This document shows positions 3 through 63,510 of a DNA stretch of 64,000 bases, piece after piece. Origin of the DNA: a virus (Duplodnaviria; Caudoviricetes). Position 1 is the first letter of the stretch. Each line of letters begins with the position of its first letter. Both the position numbers and the translations under genes were made by a program. Under the pieces are notes generated by a model. It was not told where the DNA came from and ran no database searches. It was given only the letters and a program-made list of their open reading frames with translations. Where the stretch lies: IMG/VR virus record IMGVR_UViG_3300042542_005523; one strand, given 5' to 3'.

Positions 3-2939
3 ACATATCAAACGGATTATCTTCAGTACAAGTTCCCTGGTCTAGATCCAAGAAATCTTTTTCTAACAACGGAGCTTTCCGCTATAGCTTCAGGAGAAGC
101 TGGCAAGCAGCCTTATTGGAATAATCCACCAATACCCTCTGTGGAGGATATGGATTTAGTAGATAGCGTGCAAGAAGCTAAATGGGCACAGATAGTTTCA
201 AATCTATTAGTTGCAAATGTCACTGATTTCTTTATTTATACCAATTGTATAATTGATACAGAAGCTTATAAGAGATATGTTATAGGTGGGACTATAAAAG
301 GCAGATACGAGCCTTTCTCTAATGGGGTGGAGGTCTCTCCAGCATCCAGTGGTATTCTTTTGGGGAAAGATATAAACGGTGACGATGCTTATCTTTTTGC
401 CAGCAATCCTTCCTTAGCGGGGTCACTCAATATACGGGGAGGTCAGACTTATAATGCATCGGCTCCTCCTGCTTCTTCAACGGAATCGTATACCGGATTC
501 ATAGCTAGTTATGACGAGGATGGAAGAGTAATTGATTCGATGGTGATCCCGGGTAAAAGCACAAAGGTTCTAAGAATAATACCATCAGAGGACGGAAATT
601 CGATATACGTTGGTGGGTCATTCAATGGACTAATAGAGGTCGGAGACTATATCTGGTCTTCGGTAGCCCCTACCGTAGGTCCTACTGGTGCACCTATCGG
701 GTTAACCAATTCCGATGTTCCAGGACTTGATACCGATTATAGCTGGATTTATACACCAGGTGGAACAGGTGCATATTCTCCTAATGTGGGAATACAGTGG
801 ACTTACAGAAATCCATCCAGTACAAGTACATCAAATTCCAATTTTAGATTATACGGGGAGGATGGTGTAACACAGGTTTCTGGCGATCTATCAAGTTCAA
901 CTGCAATCAAGTACATTTCCCTTGGGTCTTCTCCGGCATCAGGATCTTTTTCACTGTCAAGCTCTAATTTGTACACAGGAATGGTAGTACAAATAGGAGG
1001 TGCTTATTATAGGATTGATACAATAACATTTAATCTACCGGATAGTAATTTTAGTTCTATTGTTCGTTGTATAGGTGTTACGTGGGTATCCGGGACACAA
1101 AGTTTAACATCAGGAAGTAATTATAATTTTGATTTCTGGTACTGGAATCAGCTATCATTCCCGTTGATTAGAAATGGCGCTACTAGTACAAGCTCAATAG
1201 AGGCAGGATCTGGTATTTTTATAATGGAATTAACTAACAATATTGGAAACACGACTTCTCTAAGGGACGTTAACTCCGAGACCGATTGGAAATACCAGGT
1301 TAAGAACTTTAGACACTTCCCTTCTGATGTTAATGCGGTAAACCCGAATACTGTTGAACAGCTGATGATGGATTCATCCCTGGATAAATTGGCTTTCTCT
1401 TTCCAGACTGATTATACTACACCCACTTACAAAATATCAACACTAAAGAATGCATGGAATAGAACTACTGATAATATTTACGTACCCGACCAATTAGGGA
1501 ACACCGGTACTTCATCAGATGTTAATGGCGTCATTATTATGAATTCATTAGATTTCAGCTTAAGAGCAGCGGCACAGATTAATAATGACGGAATGGATAG
1601 CGTAACTGCTGTTTCTGTAGCTTCGCTATCCGGAACGGAGACCTTAGCGGTCAATGGCTCTACTAATGTTAGCATCAATATAACCGGGGTTACACTTACC
1701 AATCCTACTGTTTATAGCGGCTATAAACCTTTCTATTTTATCATGGATTATTCAGACCCCGGTAACATAGGTATCACTGGAAGTTTCTTTAGCTCTTTTG
1801 GTACTAGTACTGCGAGGCCATTTGAAAGTAATGCTGGATACCTGAGTAAGTATAATGGTTATTATACGGTGACTAATCAGCACTATGGAGCTACATCTGG
1901 TACATATCTCGGTAAAGATATAGAACTTGGCCTACCCAGTCAGTATTTAGTAACCGGTTTTGTAAACCCATCAAATTCCACGGAGAAAGTAGTATTTGGT
2001 CCTTTGCCTAATATACAAATAATCACACAAACCACATCGGGATATCCAATATCAACAGATCTTGATATTTGGAATTCTAGACCTATTGCTACAGAAACTG
2101 GTAATCTGGTTGGTATTTTCGCAGGTGCAACATCCGATTCATACTCGACTAGTTTACAGAATATTTACGTCTTCAAGCAGGATTTAAATACTGGAATAGT
2201 GAGCACATTAAGTTTAGAAAATGTTAAAACAATAGGTGGTAATATATTCTCTTCTGATTCAATAGGGAACATATTCTTTACTGGTCAGAATGCTTCCACC
2301 TATGGCGGATCAACAGGACCTGCTTGGTTGGATTATGTTACGACTAATAGTAACGCTAATGTGTATTCTTTCCTTTCTGAGCAATACATTCCTCAACTTG
2401 GTGTCAATATGGGACAGATTATATCTAGACCAGGGTCGAACCCGTGGACGTGGTGTGACGTACACCAATCTGATAAGGGACTGACACTTCCGCAGCTTTG
2501 CACTGTTTTCTTCTCCAATTATAATTCTGCTATCTACGGAAAGCAAAATAACGTATGGATACTAAGCGATGCGAAAACCGGCACAGAGATATTGAATGTT
2601 AAGAACACTCCTTATTTTATTTACACATTCGCTCAGGAGGGCTATTACTCCATTTACAATTCAGTGGAGGATGCATTCGGAAATGTATATGAAGTATCTA
2701 ATCCTGCTTTTGTTACCGTAGTGAATTACACAGATAAAAACCCTAATGATAAAAATCCTTTCGCTGTTAATTCATCAGATTACGGATGGCCAATACCACC
2801 AAAAAACACTGATCAGAAGCTACAAGCTTTAGAGAAAACAATGGCTCAGGATCAAATTGAAAATGCTAAAAATAATAAATTACCTTTCGTTTCGAACCTA
2901 GTTATTAAGGATAATCCTGACGCCACTTTTAATCAGTAA
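3..2939 (+). CDS. Large virion structural protein (tail/baseplate-associated), 5'-truncated by the window edge
   Basis: The frame of the 141..2939 ORF is open back to position 3, so the true start lies upstream. S/T/G/N-rich beta-type sequence with a C-terminal PKD/Ig-like segment (VFFSNY...WILSD...YTFAQEGYYSI); structural-module context. Confidence 0.6.
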   Translation, partial: TYQTDYLQYKFPGLDPRNLFLTTELSAIASGEAGKQPYWNNPPIPSVEDMDLVDSVQEAKWAQIVSNLLVANVTDFFIYTNCIIDTEAYKRYVIGGTIKGRYEPFSNGVEVSPASSGILLGKDINGDDAYLFASNPSLAGSLNIRGGQTYNASAPPASSTESYTGFIASYDEDGRVIDSMVIPGKSTKVLRIIPSEDGNSIYVGGSFNGLIEVGDYIWSSVAPTVGPTGAPIGLTNSDVPGLDTDYSWIYTPGGTGAYSPNVGIQWTYRNPSSTSTSNSNFRLYGEDGVTQVSGDLSSSTAIKYISLGSSPASGSFSLSSSNLYTGMVVQIGGAYYRIDTITFNLPDSNFSSIVRCIGVTWVSGTQSLTSGSNYNFDFWYWNQLSFPLIRNGATSTSSIEAGSGIFIMELTNNIGNTTSLRDVNSETDWKYQVKNFRHFPSDVNAVNPNTVEQLMMDSSLDKLAFSFQTDYTTPTYKISTLKNAWNRTTDNIYVPDQLGNTGTSSDVNGVIIMNSLDFSLRAAAQINNDGMDSVTAVSVASLSGTETLAVNGSTNVSINITGVTLTNPTVYSGYKPFYFIMDYSDPGNIGITGSFFSSFGTSTARPFESNAGYLSKYNGYYTVTNQHYGATSGTYLGKDIELGLPSQYLVTGFVNPSNSTEKVVFGPLPNIQIITQTTSGYPISTDLDIWNSRPIATETGNLVGIFAGATSDSYSTSLQNIYVFKQDLNTGIVSTLSLENVKTIGGNIFSSDSIGNIFFTGQNASTYGGSTGPAWLDYVTTNSNANVYSFLSEQYIPQLGVNMGQIISRPGSNPWTWCDVHQSDKGLTLPQLCTVFFSNYNSAIYGKQNNVWILSDAKTGTEILNVKNTPYFIYTFAQEGYYSIYNSVEDAFGNVYEVSNPAFVTVVNYTDKNPNDKNPFAVNSSDYGWPIPPKNTDQKLQALEKTMAQDQIENAKNNKLPFVSNLVIKDNPDATFNQ

Positions 2940-2992
2940 AAATAAGTGGATAAATCGAATCCTTTTTGTTTATAAGTAATATAATATCTAAT

Positions 2993-3673
2993 ATGGAAAA
3001 ACTATCAAAAATCCCAAATTCGGAAAAAAGAAAACCTAAAAATCCGATAAGATTTAAAATTGAATTAAACGAGGAACAAAAAATAGCAAAATCACTGATT
3101 TACGATAATCCTGTTGTCTTGATAAAAGGTCAAGCAGGATCTGGTAAGACTTTAGTTGCTTGCCAGGTTGCTATGGACATGTTTTTCAAAAGGGAAATAG
3201 AAAAGATCATAATAACCAGACCGACTGTAGCAAAAGAGGATATAGGTTTTTTGCCCGGAGATCTTAAGGAAAAAATGGATCCGTGGTTGGCTCCCATCTA
3301 TTCAAATCTCCATCTTTTATACGATAGAGAGAAAGTTGATAAGATGCTAGCTGAGAATCAAATAGAGATAGTGCCTTTTGCCTTCATGAGAGGTAGAACA
3401 TTCCCTAATTCCTTCGTTGTCGTTGACGAGTGTCAAAACATCACACACAGTCAAACCGAGATGATGCTAGGCCGCTTAGGTAAAGGTGGTAAAATGGTTT
3501 TCTGCGGGGACATAACACAATCGGATCTTAAGAATAAGAAAGAAAGCGGAATAAGCTTTTTTGCTAGATTAGAGGAGAATGTTAAGGGTGTTAAAGTGAT
3601 CTCGCTTAAAACTAATCATAGACACGAAATAGTGGAACCGATCCTTAGAGTTTACGGTGACTTTAGAGATTAG
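2993..3673 (+). CDS. phoH: PhoH-family ATPase
   Basis: Walker A GQAGSGKT, ITRP, GFLPGD, RGRTF, DECQN and GDITQSD motifs; likely start is ATG 2993 (ORF call 2966). Confidence 0.95.
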   Translation: MEKLSKIPNSEKRKPKNPIRFKIELNEEQKIAKSLIYDNPVVLIKGQAGSGKTLVACQVAMDMFFKREIEKIIITRPTVAKEDIGFLPGDLKEKMDPWLAPIYSNLHLLYDREKVDKMLAENQIEIVPFAFMRGRTFPNSFVVVDECQNITHSQTEMMLGRLGKGGKMVFCGDITQSDLKNKKESGISFFARLEENVKGVKVISLKTNHRHEIVEPILRVYGDFRD

Positions 3674-42917: not shown

Positions 42918-44336
42918 ATGATAGTAGATATAGAAAATAAAGGAACGTATCTGAACGTTTCTCATTTCAGTGACGAGGGCGATCTAGTTTTTTTGCACAT
43001 TCCCGTTCCTGAGGAGGAGAGATTTGTTTGGTCAAAGTGCTATCCTAATGACAGAAAAAAAGACCCAGAATGGAAAGACTGGACGGGTGCACCAGTTAAA
43101 AAGGATCCTTCTGAGAGATACGATAAGTATAGAATGGCTCAAATGCTGGAAGAGTCAGATCGCAGCATAACAGCACCACTTTGGGAGTATCAGACACCAA
43201 AGAAATACTTTCTCGATATCGAGGTTGAGATCACGGATGAGATGGCAGATGCGTTAGATACGGAGAACACAAAGAATAGAGTTTTATCAATCGGTATCGC
43301 AACAGACAAATGCAAGCTTATTGTTTTAGGTCTAGATCCTCTAACTCAAGAGCAACAGGTTTCCATTCATAATAAGCTGAATAGCTACTTCGAAAAAACC
43401 GGTGACGAGTGGAGCTTTAAATACAAGCAATTTGAAAGCGAGTATGATATGATGTATACTTTCTTTAAGGACATAGGATCGAAGATGCCATTCATTACAG
43501 GATGGAACTGGCTAGGGTATGACTGGCCGTATTTGATAAACCGTGCAAAGAAGCTGGGAATAGATCCCAAGATGATATCACCGTCACGTACTCTAATAGG
43601 AAAGAATCAGCTACCACAACACATACTAATGGTCGATTACTTGGATATCTATAAAAAATGGGACCGTGTTATAAAGATCAAGGAAAGTAATAGGTTGGAT
43701 TATGTTGCTGAAAAAGCTATAGGACTCAAGAAGATCTCATATAACGGAACTCTCCGTGATCTATATCAATCTAATTTTGAAGACTTTATCTACTATAACG
43801 CAGTCGATTGTGCTCTTGTTCATTATATAGATCAGAAGCTAAAGACCTTACAGACTTTCTTTAAGATAGCATTGGTAACAGGCGTAGAAATTAATAGAGC
43901 ACTTTCCCCAGTTTGGTCAACAGAGAGCATGATGCTCAGAAAGTTCCTAGAAAGAAAACAGGTATTTGTTAACGAGAGGAAAGAAGAGCAGGCAGTTAAA
44001 TTTGCAGGTGGATATGTTAAGGAGCCAATAGCGGGATTGCACGAATGGATAGCTTGTTATGACTTTGCCTCCCTGTACCCAAATACAATTGTTCAATGGG
44101 GTATATCCCCTGAAGTCTATAAAGGGAAGAGCATATTAACTCCAAAGGAAAGTTGGGTTAAAACATCATCTGGTGCGTACTTCGGAGGAGAAGACGAAGA
44201 GCCTATACTAAGAGGCATAGTTAGCGATCTTTATGCAAAAAGAAGAGCTACAAAGAACAAAATGTTAGCTTTACAGATCGAAATCGATAGACTTGAAAAA
44301 TTACTAAAAAAAGAATCAGAAAATTCCCCTAAATAG
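42918..44336 (+). CDS. Family B DNA polymerase, N-terminal subunit (3'-5' exonuclease + motif A; gp43A-like)
   Basis: Exo I LDIEVE, Exo II GWN...YDWPYL, Exo III YNAVD, motif A YDFASLYP; the ORF stops after the first fingers helix and lacks motifs B and C. Confidence 0.9.
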   Translation: MIVDIENKGTYLNVSHFSDEGDLVFLHIPVPEEERFVWSKCYPNDRKKDPEWKDWTGAPVKKDPSERYDKYRMAQMLEESDRSITAPLWEYQTPKKYFLDIEVEITDEMADALDTENTKNRVLSIGIATDKCKLIVLGLDPLTQEQQVSIHNKLNSYFEKTGDEWSFKYKQFESEYDMMYTFFKDIGSKMPFITGWNWLGYDWPYLINRAKKLGIDPKMISPSRTLIGKNQLPQHILMVDYLDIYKKWDRVIKIKESNRLDYVAEKAIGLKKISYNGTLRDLYQSNFEDFIYYNAVDCALVHYIDQKLKTLQTFFKIALVTGVEINRALSPVWSTESMMLRKFLERKQVFVNERKEEQAVKFAGGYVKEPIAGLHEWIACYDFASLYPNTIVQWGISPEVYKGKSILTPKESWVKTSSGAYFGGEDEEPILRGIVSDLYAKRRATKNKMLALQIEIDRLEKLLKKESENSPK

Positions 44337-56907: not shown

Positions 56908-57269
56908 TGGACCTTATTCTTTTTCTACTCGTCTCATTTTCATTTTGCTACTTGGTGGTAACCTCCTATATAGTAGCTCCTGTTAGAAATTACTTTCTAG
57001 TAAAATATCCATATATTGGGAAACTACTTAGCTGCATACAGTGCTTTGGATTTTGGAGCGGCTTTCTATTTTCATTGCTTTCTTATTTTGGGTTAATCTC
57101 TATCAATCAAGATAATATTAGATACTCAGATATCCCTATATTGAGTTTTTTCCTCTGCGGACTGCTAGCAAGTCTTTTCTCTGTACTGGCGAATTCCCTT
57201 ATTTTTTATCTAAACTCTAGAGATATATACATTATAGAAAAAGATAAAAAAAAGAACCAAAATGAGTAA
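56904..57269 (+). CDS. Small membrane protein, DUF1360-like
   Basis: Three hydrophobic segments with P.R...GKLLSC.QC.GFW.G. Confidence 0.55.
   Translation: MMDLILFLLVSFSFCYLVVTSYIVAPVRNYFLVKYPYIGKLLSCIQCFGFWSGFLFSLLSYFGLISINQDNIRYSDIPILSFFLCGLLASLFSVLANSLIFYLNSRDIYIIEKDKKKNQNE
57222..57229 (+). promoter_or_regulatory. Putative late promoter box GATATATA
   Basis: About 32 nt upstream of 57262, inside the upstream ORF. Confidence 0.45.
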
Positions 57270-58773
57270 AGTAAAAAGCTGGACAGATTTTAATAAATTC
57301 TCATTCAGTACTATCGCTATAAACGAGAGTGATCCAGCACAAGTACTTAGCGACGAGAATGCTAAAGCTGCTGAACAAATAAGGAAGTATCTAAAAGAGA
57401 AAGGGGTAAGCGTAGATGGAATCACAATCGACTTCTCTTCCGACGGCGTCGAAGCAGCCCCAAAGGAAGATCCTAATAAAACTGTATCCTATTCTACAGG
57501 TGGAGTTACAGGTGGAGATAGAATTAGGGGTGGAGATAGAATTGGACACACAGGTGCTCACAGCTCAAGTTCGAACGATAAATTAGGAAATTTAGCTGAT
57601 ACCCTTGCTGATGCTGCTGAGTATGCAGGAAGAGGACTTGGAAACACTATCAAATCAGATTCGACGACGTTCGGTAGTGCGCTTAGTGCTGATGGTAGAA
57701 AACAGATTAAAGATTATTTCTTCGGTACCGGTGGAGAAGTGGAAACAATAGGTGGTGGCGTTTCAGGATTTGCAGCTTTTTCAGGTTCTTCTTTAAATGG
57801 TGGTATAGATGCTTCCAACCAGGAGTCATATCAAAACAAAAAAACAGAGGTTCTCAAGACTGAAAATCCCGATCTTAGTAAAGCCACGAGCAATTTAACT
57901 CAACCAAACTACTATAATATAGGTAAACCCTCTTTTGTTGGATCAAAAGAATATAAGGATATACTTGATTCCATAGGAAAAAATAGAAAATCCGCACTTA
58001 GATTTTTGGAGGATATAGGAGTTGATACTGAACTAATAAGGGAAAGAGAAAATCACTTAGTTGCTCTTAGATCCTCTTTAGATATAAAGAATTCTTATCC
58101 GAACGATTTTACTGACTTTTTTATATTGTTCAAAATTGATGGTGATATTGACACATTTCTGGGAAGTACAACACCATCACCAGCATTTAGAGTTAAAGAG
58201 TGGTACGACTATCTCATTAAAATAGGATTTACAAAACTAATAGTTCAACAGGGATCATATATTTTAGACCCGGGTGTTTATAAATTTGTGATAAAAGATA
58301 CTGATACGAAAAGTAAATATTTCGGTTCATCTATTTTACAGCAAGACGGAACCTCTAATTTTCATAAATATGGATTGATGGGGAGTGCAGCTGAGGCTAA
58401 AAGGACCAACACATTCTCTCCTGGTAGTCTTGAAAAAGGAAGAATTGATCTTTGTATAACTCCTGCTCTACCTGAAGGAAGAAATGCAGACGGATTAGAT
58501 GCTACGACATCGGGAGATCAGGTTATAAAGAACGCGAAATCATTTGATAAGATACTAGCAGCAGCTAAATCTAATCCTTCAGCAACTCTTCCTTATATTC
58601 TAGCAGAAAATAACGGGGTTAAATCTAAAAGAGAGGAGAGAAGGGAGAGAAGAGAGGAAAGGAAAGAAGAAAAGAAGGGCACAGAGAAAGCTGAAGTAAA
58701 TGCAGAAGATGCAAAAGTTAACGAATCTTTCAGCCAAAATGGTATGAAATACCTTAAAAAATTCGGCGAATAA
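57262..58773 (+). CDS. Hypothetical 503-aa protein with CTS-like motifs at both termini
   Basis: Starts MSKVKSWTDF...INES and ends VNES...MKYLKKFGE; Gly-rich internal region. Confidence 0.6.
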   Translation: MSKVKSWTDFNKFSFSTIAINESDPAQVLSDENAKAAEQIRKYLKEKGVSVDGITIDFSSDGVEAAPKEDPNKTVSYSTGGVTGGDRIRGGDRIGHTGAHSSSSNDKLGNLADTLADAAEYAGRGLGNTIKSDSTTFGSALSADGRKQIKDYFFGTGGEVETIGGGVSGFAAFSGSSLNGGIDASNQESYQNKKTEVLKTENPDLSKATSNLTQPNYYNIGKPSFVGSKEYKDILDSIGKNRKSALRFLEDIGVDTELIRERENHLVALRSSLDIKNSYPNDFTDFFILFKIDGDIDTFLGSTTPSPAFRVKEWYDYLIKIGFTKLIVQQGSYILDPGVYKFVIKDTDTKSKYFGSSILQQDGTSNFHKYGLMGSAAEAKRTNTFSPGSLEKGRIDLCITPALPEGRNADGLDATTSGDQVIKNAKSFDKILAAAKSNPSATLPYILAENNGVKSKREERRERREERKEEKKGTEKAEVNAEDAKVNESFSQNGMKYLKKFGE

Positions 58774-58817
58774 GAAACTTAGCTTCATTTTTTCAATAGA
58801 ACTTCTAAACATAGAAG

Positions 58818-59324
58818 TTGAATAAATTAAGCATCACAGATCAGATCAATACCCAATATAGGGATTATGCCCTATATGTTATACAGAGCAGGGGTATTCC
58901 AAATTTCTATGATTTCCTAACTCCGGTACAGAGATTAATCTTAGAAAACTCCCCATCCAGATACAATAAAACCGTTGGACTAGTAGGGGAGGTTATTAAA
59001 ACCGGATTTTATCATCATGGAGATTGCCTTGATGGCGACACCCTCATAAATCTAGCAGACGGAACATCTATAAAGATTAAAGAGTGGTATAAAAACAATC
59101 CAGAGGCTGACCTATTGGTAAGATCTTTCGATACAGATTCCGGTGAAGAAGTTATAGGATATGCGCATAGCCCTAGAATAGGCCAACTAAATAATGAATA
59201 TCTAGAGATAGAATTAGAATCGGGCGAAATAATAAGATGCACAGATAATCATCCATTCTTAGTGGATGGTGAATGGATTAAAGCCGGTGATTTGGTGAAA
59301 GGGCACGACATAACAAATTTATGA
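58818..59324 (+). CDS. Topoisomerase II medium subunit (gp52/GyrA-like), N-terminal fragment fused to split intein N-half
   Basis: Y.DYALYVI..R.IP...D.L.PVQR and YHHGD extein, then CLDGDT (intein block A, Cys at 59025) and IRCTDNHPF (block B); stop at 59324. Confidence 0.9.
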   Translation: MNKLSITDQINTQYRDYALYVIQSRGIPNFYDFLTPVQRLILENSPSRYNKTVGLVGEVIKTGFYHHGDCLDGDTLINLADGTSIKIKEWYKNNPEADLLVRSFDTDSGEEVIGYAHSPRIGQLNNEYLEIELESGEIIRCTDNHPFLVDGEWIKAGDLVKGHDITNL

Positions 59325-59342
59325 TTTTTTCATACCATCATT

Positions 59343-59350
59343 GATATATA
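59343..59350 (+). promoter_or_regulatory. Putative late promoter box GATATATA for the HNH gene
   Basis: About 13 nt upstream of 59364. Confidence 0.5.
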
Positions 59351-59363
59351 AAATAAAAAATCC

Positions 59364-60242
59364 ATGATGATAGAGAAATATTGCGAAAGGTGTGGCATTA
59401 AATACCAAACAGATAAAAAATCATTTTTTAAGTATTGTAGTACCTTATGTAGGTCTAGAGATAAATTCATAGCTATCAAGGATAAGCATGGAAATGAATT
59501 TAACGTGTGGAAAAATAATTTCCAAAAATACCCTGATTTTTATCTTAGTCTGAGTAAGATCAATAATACAAGAAATAAATGTTTTATATGTGGCATTGAA
59601 TATAATTCTTTTAGAATGTGCTGTAGCAAAGAATGCTCAAGCATAATGAAAAAGCAAACTACTTTTAAAACTACAGGGGCTGAACATAATCTATCATCTG
59701 GTTCCAAATCTAGATCCAATATGGAAGAAAACCTCATCCAATTATACGGGGTCAGTAACGTATATCAAAGGCATGATGTTAAAGAAAAATTAAAAAATAC
59801 TTGGTATTTGAAATATGGATATGACAACCCATCCAAATCTAAAAATGTAAAAGAGAAGAAAAGAAAGGAAGCAGAGAAGAATGGATTTTGGATTCCAAGG
59901 GAAGAATGGTCTGAAAGAAAAATCTATGAAGCTAATGTTCACGAGATTACTTGGTCGCAAATGAGAAATTTTGCAAAACTTAAATTCGGAAGTGATATAT
60001 GGGATAGAATAAAGGAATCAAGGGGGTTACCTCAGACAGAATGGCTAACAGTCGATCATAGATATTCTAGAAACCAGGGATTTTTGGAAAAGATGGATCC
60101 TAGTATAATTGGGCACATCTGCAATATAGATATATTAACATTCAGCGAAAACCGAAATAAATGGTCGACGTCTAGTATAACAATCGGTGAATTAAAAGCA
60201 GAAATAGAAGAATTCAATAAAAATATAAGAGATGCGGATTAA
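59364..60242 (+). mobile_element. Free-standing HNH-type homing endonuclease between the split intein halves
   Basis: Two CxxC...CSxxC Zn modules, YGVSNV/YGYDNPS repeats and C-terminal DHRYS...GF.....IGHICN...L...EN..K; low GC. Confidence 0.75.
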
Positions 60243-61539
60243 ATCAATAAAAAAAATTATCTTGGATTCACCCAAGCCTTTTTATGATATAACAGTAGAA
60301 AAGTACTCCAATTTTTCAATTGGTAAATCAAACATAATATCCCATAATTCTTCTTTGGCCGGAGCAATATCAAAACTAGCAAGGCCATTCGGTTGCTCCT
60401 TCCAGATATTAGAAGGTGATGGATTTTTTGGATCGCCTGTTAACCCTTCGCCATCCGCTCCTAGGTACACCTCTGTTAGAATTAACAATAAGATAAAAGA
60501 GCTAATAGAAAAGCACTCCGATCTTAACGAGGCAAACGAAGAGGGATCTCACGATTGGATTCACGTGGAAATGCCTATAGGTCTTATGACCCATATGGTT
60601 GGTATTGCAGTTGGCTATAGAACTAATATACTACCCAGAAAAATGGAGGATGTTATAGAGTACCTCTCGGGTCAGCCTAAATTATTGAAGCCGCATTTCC
60701 GAGATTTTTCAGGCAAAGTAACCAAGTATAATAATGAGGAGAACACATGGTTAATAGAGTCCGGTCTTGAGGTCAATGCCTCTAAGAAATCAATGAGAAT
60801 ATTCGATCTTCCGCCAGCTATCAGATACGATAGCTTTATGGTGAGGCTTGAATCAAAGCTTGATCTATTAGGATGTGAATACCGCATAGAAAATAAATCT
60901 CAGAGTAAGTGTGATCTTACAATTACATTCCGTGGAATTGACGACGATAAGTTCAAATACGTTTCCGATAATATTTCAAGGATTACAAAGATTATAATCA
61001 AGGAAGATATTGTTTTAGTCAAAGACGGGGGAGTAGCTGAATATGGATCAATAAAGGAATACCTGGATCAATTTAAGGTACATCTGGAAGAGGTAAGATT
61101 GAAAAGACTGAAAAAAGATGCATTGAATCTTTTGTCTGATCTTGAGTTTCTAGAAGCAAAATTAAAGTTTCTAAATTTCATGATACAGAAGAAAAGAAGT
61201 AATTCAGAGATCTCCCAGTTCTTGTCAGTGTACAATTCAAGGATAACATCAAGATTACAGAGAATAGAAGCAGTTAAACTAAGCGTAGAAAGCATAGAAG
61301 AGACTAAGAGCGAGATCGAGCGTATTAAGAAGGCAACAACAGAGAATAAGAAAGCTGTTAAAGAACAGGAGACAAAATACAAAGAGGCAAAGAAGCTTTT
61401 AAAAAAGCTATCGAAACCACTGGTTAGGACTAACTCACTATTCGAGCCCACCGAGATTGACGGGATAGAAATATTCCAGCCGGAAGAGGAATCAGAAGAA
61501 AAAGAGGGGGAAGATCAAGAATTAGACGAAAACATTTAA
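60232..61539 (+). CDS. Split intein C-half fused to the topoisomerase II gp52/GyrA-like C-terminal fragment
   Basis: MRIKSIKK...FYDITV...NF.I...IISHN (39 aa), then Ser+1 at 60349; extein has G.FGS....SAPRYT (catalytic Tyr) and GIAVGY.TNI.P. Confidence 0.9.
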   Translation: MRIKSIKKIILDSPKPFYDITVEKYSNFSIGKSNIISHNSSLAGAISKLARPFGCSFQILEGDGFFGSPVNPSPSAPRYTSVRINNKIKELIEKHSDLNEANEEGSHDWIHVEMPIGLMTHMVGIAVGYRTNILPRKMEDVIEYLSGQPKLLKPHFRDFSGKVTKYNNEENTWLIESGLEVNASKKSMRIFDLPPAIRYDSFMVRLESKLDLLGCEYRIENKSQSKCDLTITFRGIDDDKFKYVSDNISRITKIIIKEDIVLVKDGGVAEYGSIKEYLDQFKVHLEEVRLKRLKKDALNLLSDLEFLEAKLKFLNFMIQKKRSNSEISQFLSVYNSRITSRLQRIEAVKLSVESIEETKSEIERIKKATTENKKAVKEQETKYKEAKKLLKKLSKPLVRTNSLFEPTEIDGIEIFQPEEESEEKEGEDQELDENI

Positions 61540-61570
61540 ACTAAACATCTAAAACTATAAAAGGAAAAAA

Positions 61571-62353
61571 ATGATAAAACTAAGAATCACCAGTACCAAC
61601 AATCTGATTAATTTTCTCAAGCGATTGAAACCCGTAGATAGAAGCGTGCTTCTAGAACTAACGTCCGATAACATTTTCTGTAAGGTTCACACACCGGATA
61701 AGGCTGTTATGAAATTTGCTTCTCTAGCTTTCGGTGAAGTTTTCGAAGGTGAGATAACATGGAAAGACATTCTTAAGGGTAAGACTCAAGAAGAAAGAGT
61801 TAAAATTGGATTGATTGAGGTTGGTAAATTTATGGATTGCTTCAAGCATTTCAGACCAGAAGAGGATGTTTTCATGGAGATATCAACTGAGGTGTTAGAG
61901 GGAAACCTTGTAGCTACAGATGTGCTTCTGACCTCTAAATCTCTACACATTAGAGTTAAATGTGCTGATCTATCTCTTCTCTCCTATGTTGATGATAATA
62001 TTTTGGATATGGTTCACTCTAAGGAAGACACTATTGCCCAATTTAAGATTTACCAATCTGATTTTTCATCAATAGTTTCGTTATGTGGATTGGAAAGTAA
62101 TTCGGAAGAACTTCTTTATTTTGACGTGTCCAGCAAGGAGGTTAGAGCTAAAGGTGAGTCATTCAATTACAAAATCAGCATCTCTCCAGAAGAGATAAGA
62201 GTTGATAGCGACAATGCTACTTCGCAGATCTACAAAACCCAACTTTCCTACATGGAATCTGAAACTTGTGATTGTTATGTACATGAAAACAGATTGGTTT
62301 TATTCTCGCAGCAGAGTAACACGTCTATTGCAATTGGTATTGTAATTAAATAA
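61571..62353 (+). CDS. Probable DNA polymerase sliding clamp (gp45/PCNA-like)
   Basis: 260 aa with two repeated beta-alpha-beta halves, immediately upstream of the polymerase C-half; assigned from size, pattern and context only. Confidence 0.5.
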   Translation: MIKLRITSTNNLINFLKRLKPVDRSVLLELTSDNIFCKVHTPDKAVMKFASLAFGEVFEGEITWKDILKGKTQEERVKIGLIEVGKFMDCFKHFRPEEDVFMEISTEVLEGNLVATDVLLTSKSLHIRVKCADLSLLSYVDDNILDMVHSKEDTIAQFKIYQSDFSSIVSLCGLESNSEELLYFDVSSKEVRAKGESFNYKISISPEEIRVDSDNATSQIYKTQLSYMESETCDCYVHENRLVLFSQQSNTSIAIGIVIK

Positions 62354-62361
62354 AAAAACAA

Positions 62362-63510
62362 ATGACAGAGACGGAAATCGAAGAGATAAAGAATAAGATA
62401 ACGGAGCTTACGTCTTTAAAGAATGAGTTAAAGAATGAGGAGCAGGCTGTTAAGCTAACGATGAATTCCATCTACGGCGCGGTAGGAAATTCTTTCTTTG
62501 TTTGCTTTAATACCGATGTTGCAGAGGCAGTTACCCTACAGGGTCAGGATATGATCAAGTTCTCTGAAAAGATTGTAAATAGATATTTTCAGGAACATTG
62601 GCATCTAGATACTGAGCTGCACGAGCAATTGGGGCTATCCCAAGTTAAGAGAGTCCACAAGCCACTGGTTATCTACTCTGACACTGACTCTAATTATGTT
62701 GCTTTTGAGGAAGTTGTAAACTCATGTGACTGGAAAGGAGATCCTAAAGATCTTATCCTACAGATAAACGAGAAAAGATTTAAGGGATATCTAAAAAACT
62801 GCTTCGAGATTTATTCAAAGAAATGGGGTACTGAAAATAAACAGGATTTCGAGTTGGAGACACTTGCTATAAATGGTATATTCCTAGGTAAGAAAAAGTA
62901 TGTTACTAATCTTGTGTACGAGGACGGAGTCCACATGGAGCCTTTATCCAGATTAAAGATAACTGGTGTTGAAATGATCAAAGGCGGAACACCCCCATTC
63001 GTTAGAGAGAAGCTAAGCTATCTTACAAAATTCATCTTCTCCAAAGGTAAAAAGTTCAGTATCAAAGAATTTGTACAAGAGCTTAAATCCATTAAAAAAG
63101 ATTTTAAAGCTCAGGAGTCCCAGAATATCTCTGCAGCTATACAAATCAACAACTACGAGAAGTTTGTTTTGAATGACGTCTCAGCGCTAGAAGTTGGAAA
63201 GGGATGTCCCATCCATGTTAGAGCAAGTGCATATCACAATTATCTACTGAATAATTCAAAATTTAAGGACAAGTATGCTATGATTAGAAGTTCAGATAAA
63301 GTTAATTTCTTCTTTGTTAAAACCAAATCCGCAGCTGAAAATAATGTATTTGCATTTGTTCAAGGTAATTTCCCATACGAATTTGCACCGCAGATAGATT
63401 ACGATCAGCAATTCACCAAGACTATTTTGGACCCAATCAACAGGTTCATTGAAGCTATGGGCCACAACCCTATAAGTCCAAATCTATTCATGATAAATCC
63501 TCTTTTTTAA
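62362..63510 (+). CDS. Family B DNA polymerase, C-terminal subunit (motifs B, C, thumb; gp43B-like)
   Basis: Motif B KLTMNSIYG, motif C YSDTDS, KKKY and C-terminal hydrophobic clamp-binding-like tail (INPLF). Confidence 0.9.
   Translation: MTETEIEEIKNKITELTSLKNELKNEEQAVKLTMNSIYGAVGNSFFVCFNTDVAEAVTLQGQDMIKFSEKIVNRYFQEHWHLDTELHEQLGLSQVKRVHKPLVIYSDTDSNYVAFEEVVNSCDWKGDPKDLILQINEKRFKGYLKNCFEIYSKKWGTENKQDFELETLAINGIFLGKKKYVTNLVYEDGVHMEPLSRLKITGVEMIKGGTPPFVREKLSYLTKFIFSKGKKFSIKEFVQELKSIKKDFKAQESQNISAAIQINNYEKFVLNDVSALEVGKGCPIHVRASAYHNYLLNNSKFKDKYAMIRSSDKVNFFFVKTKSAAENNVFAFVQGNFPYEFAPQIDYDQQFTKTILDPINRFIEAMGHNPISPNLFMINPLF

Follow-up and report, generated by a model that had tools for sequence, protein, structure and literature searches.

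A naturally split intein carrying a stand-alone endonuclease-like gene between its halves fractures the topoisomerase gene gp52 of an uncultured T4-like lake phage

Results

Layout of the fractured gp52 locus

The DNA analyzed here is a stretch of 64,000 nucleotides (nt) from a virus of the Caudoviricetes (IMG/VR record IMGVR_UViG_3300042542_005523), and by the window we mean this whole stretch. It belongs to an uncultured T4-like lake phage whose gene for the topoisomerase II medium subunit (gp52, GyrA-like) is occupied by a composite mobile element, a class-1 mini-intein split at the canonical endonuclease-insertion loop with an endonuclease-like gene in the break. Three open reading frames (ORFs) make up the locus (Table 1), exactly at the positions, 58818-61539, where a first-pass annotation of the same sequence had placed them. 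ORF1 joins the N-terminal part of gp52 (N-extein) to the N-terminal half of the intein (IntN), ORF2 stands alone in the middle, and ORF3 joins the C-terminal half of the intein (IntC) to the remainder of gp52 (C-extein), so that the two halves lie in separate ORFs split at the endonuclease-insertion loop. The inserted DNA runs from 59025 to 60348 (1,324 nt). ORF2 is read in a different frame from ORF1 and overlaps ORF3; this overlap (4 or 11 nt) is conserved in the relatives L006, L007, L019, L022, and L023, which suggests that translation of ORF3 may be coupled to that of ORF2. The first-pass annotation had described a gp52/GyrA-like ORF broken at YHHGD/S (the slash marks the insertion point throughout), an IntN with Cys1, a TDNH block B, an acidic stretch and a stop, a basic IntC with a terminal HN and Ser+1, and a middle gene of 292 amino acids (aa) overlapping the next start, and the ORF coordinates bear out all of these elements, with an overlap of 11 nt in the window.

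Table 1. Parts of the gp52 locus in the window
Feature	Position	Strand	Description
ORF1	58818-59324	+	168 aa: 69-aa gp52 N-extein plus 99-aa IntN, TGA stop
gp52 N-extein	58818-59024	+	69 aa; TTG start; C terminus ...GFYHHGD; PF00521 and phrog_551 matches
IntN	59025-59324	+	99 aa plus TGA; Cys1 at 59025; block B T-D-N-H; EYLEIELESGE stretch
Spacer	59325-59363	+	39 nt, A/T-rich, 5' of ORF2; 100% identical in L022
ORF2	59364-60242	+	292 aa; free-standing endonuclease-like gene
ORF3	60232-61539	+	435 aa: 39-aa IntC plus 396-aa C-extein
IntC	60232-60348	+	39 aa, MRIKSIKK...ISHN; ATG 11 nt inside the end of ORF2
gp52 C-extein	60349-61539	+	396 aa; Ser+1 at 60349 (SSLAGAISKLARPF...); catalytic ...APRYTSV...
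Upstream co-conversion-like flank	58793-59024	+	Outer limit between 58737 and 58955
Downstream co-converted flank	60349-60383	+	Limit between 60357 and 60384

Identity and conservation of the intein

IntN matched the NCBIfam model TIGR01445 (intein_Nterm) with 49.5 bits (cut-off 24.5) over model positions 1-83, and IntC matched TIGR01443 (intein_Cterm) with 21.1 bits (cut-off 15.6). IntN contains the N-terminal splicing region of a class-1 Hint domain, with Cys1 in block A and the TxxH (T-D-N-H) of block B, and IntC ends in the corresponding His-Asn followed by Ser as the +1 nucleophile. Cys1 and a C-T-x-N-H block B are invariant in 79 IntN homologues with identities down to 44%, and the FYD motif, the terminal HN, and the length of exactly 39 aa are invariant in 26 of the 26 IntC-bearing relatives among the best matches. 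ORF1-like proteins that end after ~98-116 intein residues form ~80 clusters, in which IntN identity ranges from 44 to 98%. Furthermore, each of the 26 intein-bearing alleles scored has Ser as residue +1, and 86 intein-free alleles have S, A, or Q there, these alleles not being phylogenetically independent; a Ser+1 that is fixed only together with the intein fits the prediction of a nucleophile requirement. The ratio of nonsynonymous to synonymous substitution rates (dN/dS) was 0.05-0.21 for IntN and 0.03-0.11 for IntC. Between the window and the distant relative L005, protein identity was 83% in IntN and 90% in IntC compared with 62% in the C-extein, so that the intein is better conserved than its host gene. 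The net charges of IntN and IntC are -12 and +4 (-4 to -15 and +1 to +7 across the family), which confirms the acidic/basic complementarity that had been noticed in the first-pass annotation.

IntN and IntC taken together are 50% identical to the contiguous 140-aa mini-intein present in P0258, a 618-aa gp52-like protein, and because the two are collinear, with a 3-aa indel at the junction, the break falls at the canonical loop. The nearest solved intein in the PDB was a DnaE-type chain (E = 0.023 over 34 residues), and by sequence comparison this intein is remote from all solved inteins. A tblastn search of the window found no further intein copies and no ORF2 paralogues. The locus is a genuine, conserved, naturally split class-1 intein that fractures gp52 at the position of GyrA D82/S83.

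Predicted spliced product and insertion site

The N-extein and the C-extein joined together give a protein of 465 aa that is identical at 465 of 465 positions to P0097, the uninterrupted gp52 encoded on the syntenic contigs L001-L004, with the N-extein corresponding to its residues 1-69 and the C-extein to its residues 70-465. Removal of the element therefore restores an intact, conserved host protein. The Pfam DNA_topoisoIV domain is present on both outer ORFs (PF00521 at 1.6e-26 in the C-extein of ORF3), and phrog_551 matched at 2.8e-38; together with the catalytic Arg-Tyr, these matches identify the host protein as a type IIA A subunit. The NCBIfam model GyrA_w_intein aligned only to the extein parts of this locus. 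When aligned to solved chains, the ...APRYTSV... motif pairs with ...AMRYTE... of GyrA and with the T4 gp52 structures 8ylu and 8yo3, and the ...HHGD/SS... of P0097 pairs with the ...HPHGD/SA... of Escherichia coli GyrA. By residue count along chain 2y3p, with one position added for the initiator Met that the chain lacks, the break falls at Asp82/Ser83; the C-extein aligns to GyrA from Ser83 onward, and the catalytic RY lies ~40 residues downstream of the break. The first-pass annotation was thus right in locating the site upstream of the catalytic RY, within the HHGD motif, and it can now be equated with D82/S83 of the E. coli protein. GyrA Ser83 is the quinolone-resistance position and lies where the DNA-contacting helix begins.

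A two-chain structure prediction with residues 63-168 of ORF1 and residues 1-48 of ORF3 as input gave a score of 0.85 in three runs, and the best of three controls reached 0.01; the mark of 0.85 was attained by 51 of 78 solved complexes and by 2 of 108 mismatched pairs. The charge complementarity and this predicted complex are both consistent with an association of the halves. The first-pass annotation had proposed that an active topoisomerase would need protein trans-splicing, and this proposal is strengthened by the identity of the predicted product to P0097 and by the predicted complex.

The gene between the halves

ORF2 has homologues in ~38 clusters (286-292 aa), and its architecture combines two Cys clusters with DUF7487 repeats (27.5 bits; cut-off 27) and, at the C terminus, an HNH-like (His-Me finger) domain. 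In this domain the residues D231-H232 ... N254 ... N263 are invariant across the 38 homologue clusters, and the gene is under purifying selection (dN/dS 0.07-0.21); we infer its nuclease nature. The C-terminal domain was modeled as two strands followed by a helix (pLDDT 87). The PHROG homing-endonuclease and HNH families matched ORF2 weakly, there was no match to GIY-YIG or Vsr models, and a fold search with the whole ORF2 model returned zinc-finger and helical noise only. Cultured T4-like phages of Klebsiella and Escherichia have free-standing genes that encode the same C-terminal domain (31-33% identity), and some of these genes are annotated as homing endonucleases. We regard the C-terminal domain of ORF2 as probably HNH-like.

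The possibility that ORF2 was carved out of a larger intein was rejected at the level of BLAST, which detected no resemblance between it and the HNH domains that the contiguous inteins of P0279 and P0293 contain. Because ORF2 is unlike these embedded domains, invasion of the intein by a free-standing gene is favored over the alternative that a bifunctional intein underwent fission. No support was found for the promoter-like box that the first-pass annotation had assigned to ORF2: 12 sigma-70-like sites were counted against 10.9 expected, which is the chance level, and the 39-nt spacer has no T4 late-promoter box (TATAAATA), so that a dedicated ORF2 promoter was also rejected. In addition, the hairpins predicted over the ORF2 start (z = -0.37) and over the ORF2/ORF3 overlap (z = +0.56) were no better than those of shuffled sequences.

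States of the insertion site in relatives

Six states were found at the same site among relatives. The site is empty in L001-L004 and L010-L016; it carries the split intein with an ORF2 of ~290 aa in L006, L019/20, L022, and L023/24, the split intein with a called ORF of 207 aa in L007/8, and a bare split intein in L005 and L017/18, where the spacers measure 21 and 105 nt, respectively; P0258 has a contiguous mini-intein, and of the 150 best representative clusters of GyrA/ParC/gp52-like proteins, at least 56 have contiguous inteins of 155-435 aa. One of the relatives with a contiguous intein is a full-length GyrA of 1,203 aa with a 406-aa, HNH-containing intein. Given these contiguous inteins, the insertion site is not unique. 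A scan of IMG/VR with ORF1 returned eight loci, of which seven (L010-L016) could be read across the site, and all seven are intein-free.

Some relatives show further interruptions of topoisomerase genes. P0261 (423 aa) is the middle fragment of a fused topoisomerase that starts with an IntC (...NGIISHN/SAQSG, in the Toprim part) and ends with an IntN at ...KYHHGE/CLDYDTE, which implies that this topoisomerase is put together out of three pieces with the help of two distinct split inteins. P0265 (949 aa) is GyrA-like and has two contiguous inteins, one at HGD/S and the other directly before the catalytic Arg-Tyr (...SAAS/CFTGDT...VFVHN/CRYTE...). At positions 1-34 of L006 the topoisomerase large subunit is split (233-aa Toprim piece), and a 416-aa OrfB_IS605/Cas12f-like TnpB gene lies directly upstream.

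Occurrence in lake water and mosaic ancestry

Of the sampled words of the whole stretch, 90% or more were present in each of 17 metagenome runs from lake water, and 12 of these 17 cannot be the source of the window; RNA runs contained 5-9% of the sampled words. A nucleotide search of GenBank phages with the locus gave no match. The record nearest to the window's own genome, the 39-kb fragment G001, is without the intein.

Two genomes allow the ancestry of the window to be followed. The intein-free L002 shares its backbone with 99.1-99.9% nt identity and has no element, whereas the intein-bearing L022, from another sample, has a backbone identity of 91-94% and yet reaches 99.5% in the N-extein, 98.0% in IntN, 98.6% in ORF2, and 100% in IntC. 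With respect to L002, the window has 8 synonymous changes within the 70 nt upstream of the insertion and 8 in the first 24 nt downstream, the next one downstream being at +396; the Ser+1 codon, TCT in the window, is AGC or AGT in L001-L004. When the window was compared with both genomes at once, 9 of the 10 informative sites between 58793 and 59021 match L022, and the 33 informative sites further upstream match L002 (30), L022 (2), or neither (1). Downstream, the six informative sites at 60349-60357 all match L022, and the window is L002-like from 60384 on. The switch from L002-like to L022-like sequence thus lies between 58737 and 58793/58955 and the switch back between 60357 and 60384, that is, the exchange breakpoints lie within ~70-230 nt on the upstream side of the insertion and within 9-35 nt on its downstream side. 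Synonymous divergence from L022 was 0-0.06 in the element and 0.27 in the C-extein. These marks of recent movement of the element between phage genomes are unusually clear, and on this pattern of matches the window is an L002-type genome that received the element with short flanks from an L022-type donor.

Three lake runs (X6, X7, and X11) contain both contigs that span the element and short contigs in which 59024 is joined to 60361, which means that both alleles occur in the same samples. The junction of the empty-site contigs reads AGT TCA CTA GCT, the same codons as in the empty site of L003.

Neighboring genes

The family-B DNA polymerase (PolB) of this phage is also encoded in two genes, ~18 kb apart, at 42918-44336 and 62362-63510 of the window. 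The N-half (472 aa) ends in ...LALQIEIDRLEKLLKKESENSPK and the C-half (382 aa) starts with MTETEIEEIKNKITELTSLKNELKNEEQ just before KLxxNSxYG. A tblastn search with IntN and IntC of the gp52 locus found no intein at this split, and the ends, which are charged and heptad-like, might form a coiled coil with each other. The split C-half is also present in the intein-free L001-L004. In L005 (8427-8516), L007 (7492-8214), and L017 (6738-7442), the PolB C-half is itself reduced to ~234-240 aa, shows a weak Intein_splicing match, and is followed by an ORF of 372-384 aa, so PolB may be a second fractured gene in these relatives.

Between the orf260 homologue and the PolB C-half, L022 (4019-5608, minus strand) and L005 (6736-8328, minus strand) carry a DUF7487 gene of 529-530 aa that is missing at 61540-62361 of the window and in L001-L004, and that looks like another insertion polymorphism of a free-standing endonuclease-like gene. 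Directly upstream of gp52 lies an ORF of 503 aa (57262-58773) with no Pfam or PHROG match, rich in Gly/Ser and with a basic ERRERREERKEEKK tail. It is the most variable gene of the neighborhood, with 92% protein identity to L002 compared with 97-100% for its neighbors, and its length is 495-506 aa in L001-L003.

Discussion

Comparison with known fractured genes and inteins

The locus described here is a new example of the fractured-gene layout known since 2009, as the first-pass annotation had claimed; for the specialist it is a good example and no surprise. Dassa, London, Stoddard, Schueler-Furman, and Pietrokovski described gp41-1, NrdJ-1, IMPDH-1, and other GOS split inteins, including 26 fractured-gene loci in eight enzyme types, in which the endonucleases are GIY-YIG or Vsr-like only, although HNH endonucleases were stated to be able to fracture genes too; topoisomerase, gyrase, and gp52 are unmentioned there (Dassa et al. 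2009; PMC2677866). As in those loci, a split intein, divided at the endonuclease-insertion loop, breaks a gene of DNA metabolism here, the halves are separated by a free-standing endonuclease-like gene on the same strand with overlapping frames, and the IntN is acidic and the IntC basic. Unlike them, the host gene is gp52 at GyrA D82/S83 and the nuclease domain is HNH-like on a DUF7487 module, so that ORF2 departs from the GIY-YIG/Vsr type that is a descriptive feature, not a requirement, of the 26 known loci. In the searchable literature, with InBase and subscription literature outside the search, we found no published split intein in a topoisomerase, gp52, or GyrA.

A close counterpart is in the huge phage LR756500.1 (L021), an uncultured and unannotated GenBank record whose gp52 is fractured at the same YHHGD/C ... 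VHN/S site, with an IntN 42% identical to that of the window. The 300-aa ORF between its halves has the Cys-cluster/DUF7487 N-terminal part in common with ORF2, but its C-terminal part looks by eye Vsr/PD-(D/E)xK-like (...IIEFNGCRWH...) rather than HNH-like. At positions 1416-3261 of this record, the Toprim piece of the topoisomerase begins with an IntC (...ILSNGIISHN/SALS...), a second split intein, and the C terminus of the 373-aa ORF before it (...HLDHMISIK...IGHIENL...VNLGKK) resembles the HNH-like domain of ORF2. The topoisomerase of LR756500.1 thus appears, from its sequence, to be fractured at two or more sites.

The contiguous inteins of P0258, P0279, P0293, and P0297 (HGD/S) share with the split intein the insertion point, the Cys1...HN/S chemistry, and a homologous splicing domain, but they are single polypeptides, either mini-inteins of 140-160 aa or inteins of ~400 aa with an embedded HNH domain unlike ORF2. 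The mycobacterial GyrA intein (Mxe/Mle GyrA) is likewise inserted in the DNA-cleavage core of a type IIA topoisomerase A subunit, but it is contiguous and sits beside the catalytic Tyr (RY/T), ~40 residues downstream of the split-intein site. The gp41-1 intein also uses Cys1/Ser+1 chemistry. Finally, the nrdA gene of phage Aeh1, with mobE, and gp43A/B of Aeromonas phage 25 are fractured by endonuclease genes, are intein-less, and give pieces that work unligated (PMC2677866). These cases resemble our locus in that an essential replication gene is split into two expressed pieces by a free-standing gene for a homing endonuclease, but only our locus has an intein with all of its catalytic residues.

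Proposed mechanism and alternatives

According to our interpretation, the phage would make two polypeptides, N-extein-IntN (168 aa) and IntC-C-extein (435 aa), translation of the latter possibly being coupled to that of ORF2 as ORF3 begins before the ORF2 stop. IntN, which is acidic, and IntC, which is basic, would associate to form the Hint fold, Cys1 would initiate an N-S acyl shift, Ser+1 (the equivalent of GyrA Ser83) would accept the N-extein, and the terminal Asn would cyclize. The outcome would be a seamless gp52 of 465 aa, equal to the protein that the intein-free relatives encode directly. In mixed infections, ORF2 would most likely cleave intein-free gp52 alleles, and repair would then copy the whole element with short flanks into the cut allele (homing).

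The presence of contiguous inteins of 155-435 aa, some of them with an HNH domain, at the same site in other GyrA-like proteins could be taken to mean that the stops are sequencing or assembly errors and that the locus is one contiguous intein with an internal endonuclease domain, an outcome that the first-pass annotation itself had named as its refutation. In fact, the stop, the spacer, and the frame changes recur in ~80 protein clusters, in independent samples and in 17 runs, the spacer is identical in L022 from another sample, and ORF2, which overlaps ORF3 and is in another frame than ORF1, has no relation to the HNH domains found within contiguous inteins. The error explanation is effectively refuted by this recurrence, its probability being close to nil, and the stops are genuine. 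It could also be argued that the intein halves are mere docking domains that hold the gp52 pieces together non-covalently, as reported for Aeh1 NrdA, since fragmented phage enzymes can function unligated (PMC3045599; summarized in PMC2677866) and the PolB of this same genome is split into two distant genes without any intein. We regard this as very improbable: Cys1, the Thr and His of block B, the terminal His-Asn, and Ser+1 are all invariant over a deep divergence, Ser+1 is fixed only in intein-bearing alleles, and an unspliced 138-aa Hint domain would be located where the DNA-contacting helix starts, at the position of GyrA Ser83. Trans-splicing of the two halves is therefore, judging from sequence and modeling, very likely.

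More weight has to be given to the explanation that the split intein splices but that the element no longer moves, with ORF2 as an inactive or re-purposed passenger and the mosaic as the result of ordinary recombination in co-infected cells. In line with this, L005 and L017/L018 are without the endonuclease gene and L007/L008 have a truncated copy of 207 aa, which represent losses in these lineages, and ORF2 matches no curated nuclease model. On the contrary, ORF2 retains a low dN/dS and the invariant D-H...N...N motif, the exchange tract is short and centered on the insertion, the element is far younger than its host gene by pairwise synonymous divergence, and empty and filled alleles coexist in the same samples. 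We consider an element that has lost its mobility rather unlikely, and the sequence patterns lead us to prefer, with some reserve, an element that is currently mobile by homing.

Several observations weigh against this picture of a trans-splicing and homing element. The persistence of the bare split intein in L005 and L017 means that ORF2 is dispensable for the topoisomerase. Also, ORF2 matches no Pfam or NCBIfam HNH model, even when the isolated C-terminal domain is searched at E = 10, and for this reason the free-standing HNH endonuclease of the first-pass annotation holds as a 292-aa gene between the halves, but its HNH label has to be lowered to probable. Among 48,161 chains, the structural neighbors of the isolated domain are mostly His-Me nucleases, but with Z scores of 4.0 or less and Foldseek E values of at least 1.6; these weak neighbors (Z 3.7-4.0 or less) include endonuclease I, BrxU, Gme HNH, GVE2 HNH, Cas9 HNH, and I-HmuI. 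The Pfam Intein_splicing model matches IntN and IntC below its gathering score (21.2 and 19.4 vs 35.8 bits), and the predicted complex may reflect the predictor's memory of solved split inteins and is a likeness, not a proof. Furthermore, the mosaic of the window is the footprint expected of homing, but ordinary homologous recombination could explain it as well. Splicing, the nuclease activity of ORF2, and its target site are all inferred.

Significance of the locus

Taking all these elements together, we tentatively propose, as a combined reading that is less probable than its separate parts, that a homing unit is currently active in lake phages, at a site preserving the whole proposed pathway of split-intein origin, with a modular endonuclease and a fast, orthogonal intein pair. 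If this is true, the states of the pathway at D82/S83 in living relatives include the empty site, a contiguous mini-intein, an intein with an embedded HNH domain, a split intein with a truncated endonuclease gene, and a bare split intein. Moreover, the same Cys-cluster/DUF7487 DNA-binding part would carry an HNH-like domain in the window and a Vsr-like domain in LR756500.1 for the same target, and the 99 + 39-aa Cys1/Ser+1 pair would be fast in trans-splicing and orthogonal to gp41-1 and Npu DnaE. Protein ligation relies heavily on split inteins as reagents, and there is a demand for new natural pairs without cross-reactivity to those already in use; the pair described here is a candidate tool of small size (99 + 39 aa) with Cys1/Ser+1, and ~80 natural IntN and 26 IntC variants are available for comparison.

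The locus is also a clean natural record of the origin, movement, and decay of a fractured gene, for which the breakpoints, the empty allele, and genomes resembling both donor and recipient are known. As both alleles are present in the same lakes, homing could be tracked over time in the field. As for the phage itself, its topoisomerase II would rely on protein trans-splicing at the counterpart of GyrA Ser83, where the DNA-contacting helix begins.

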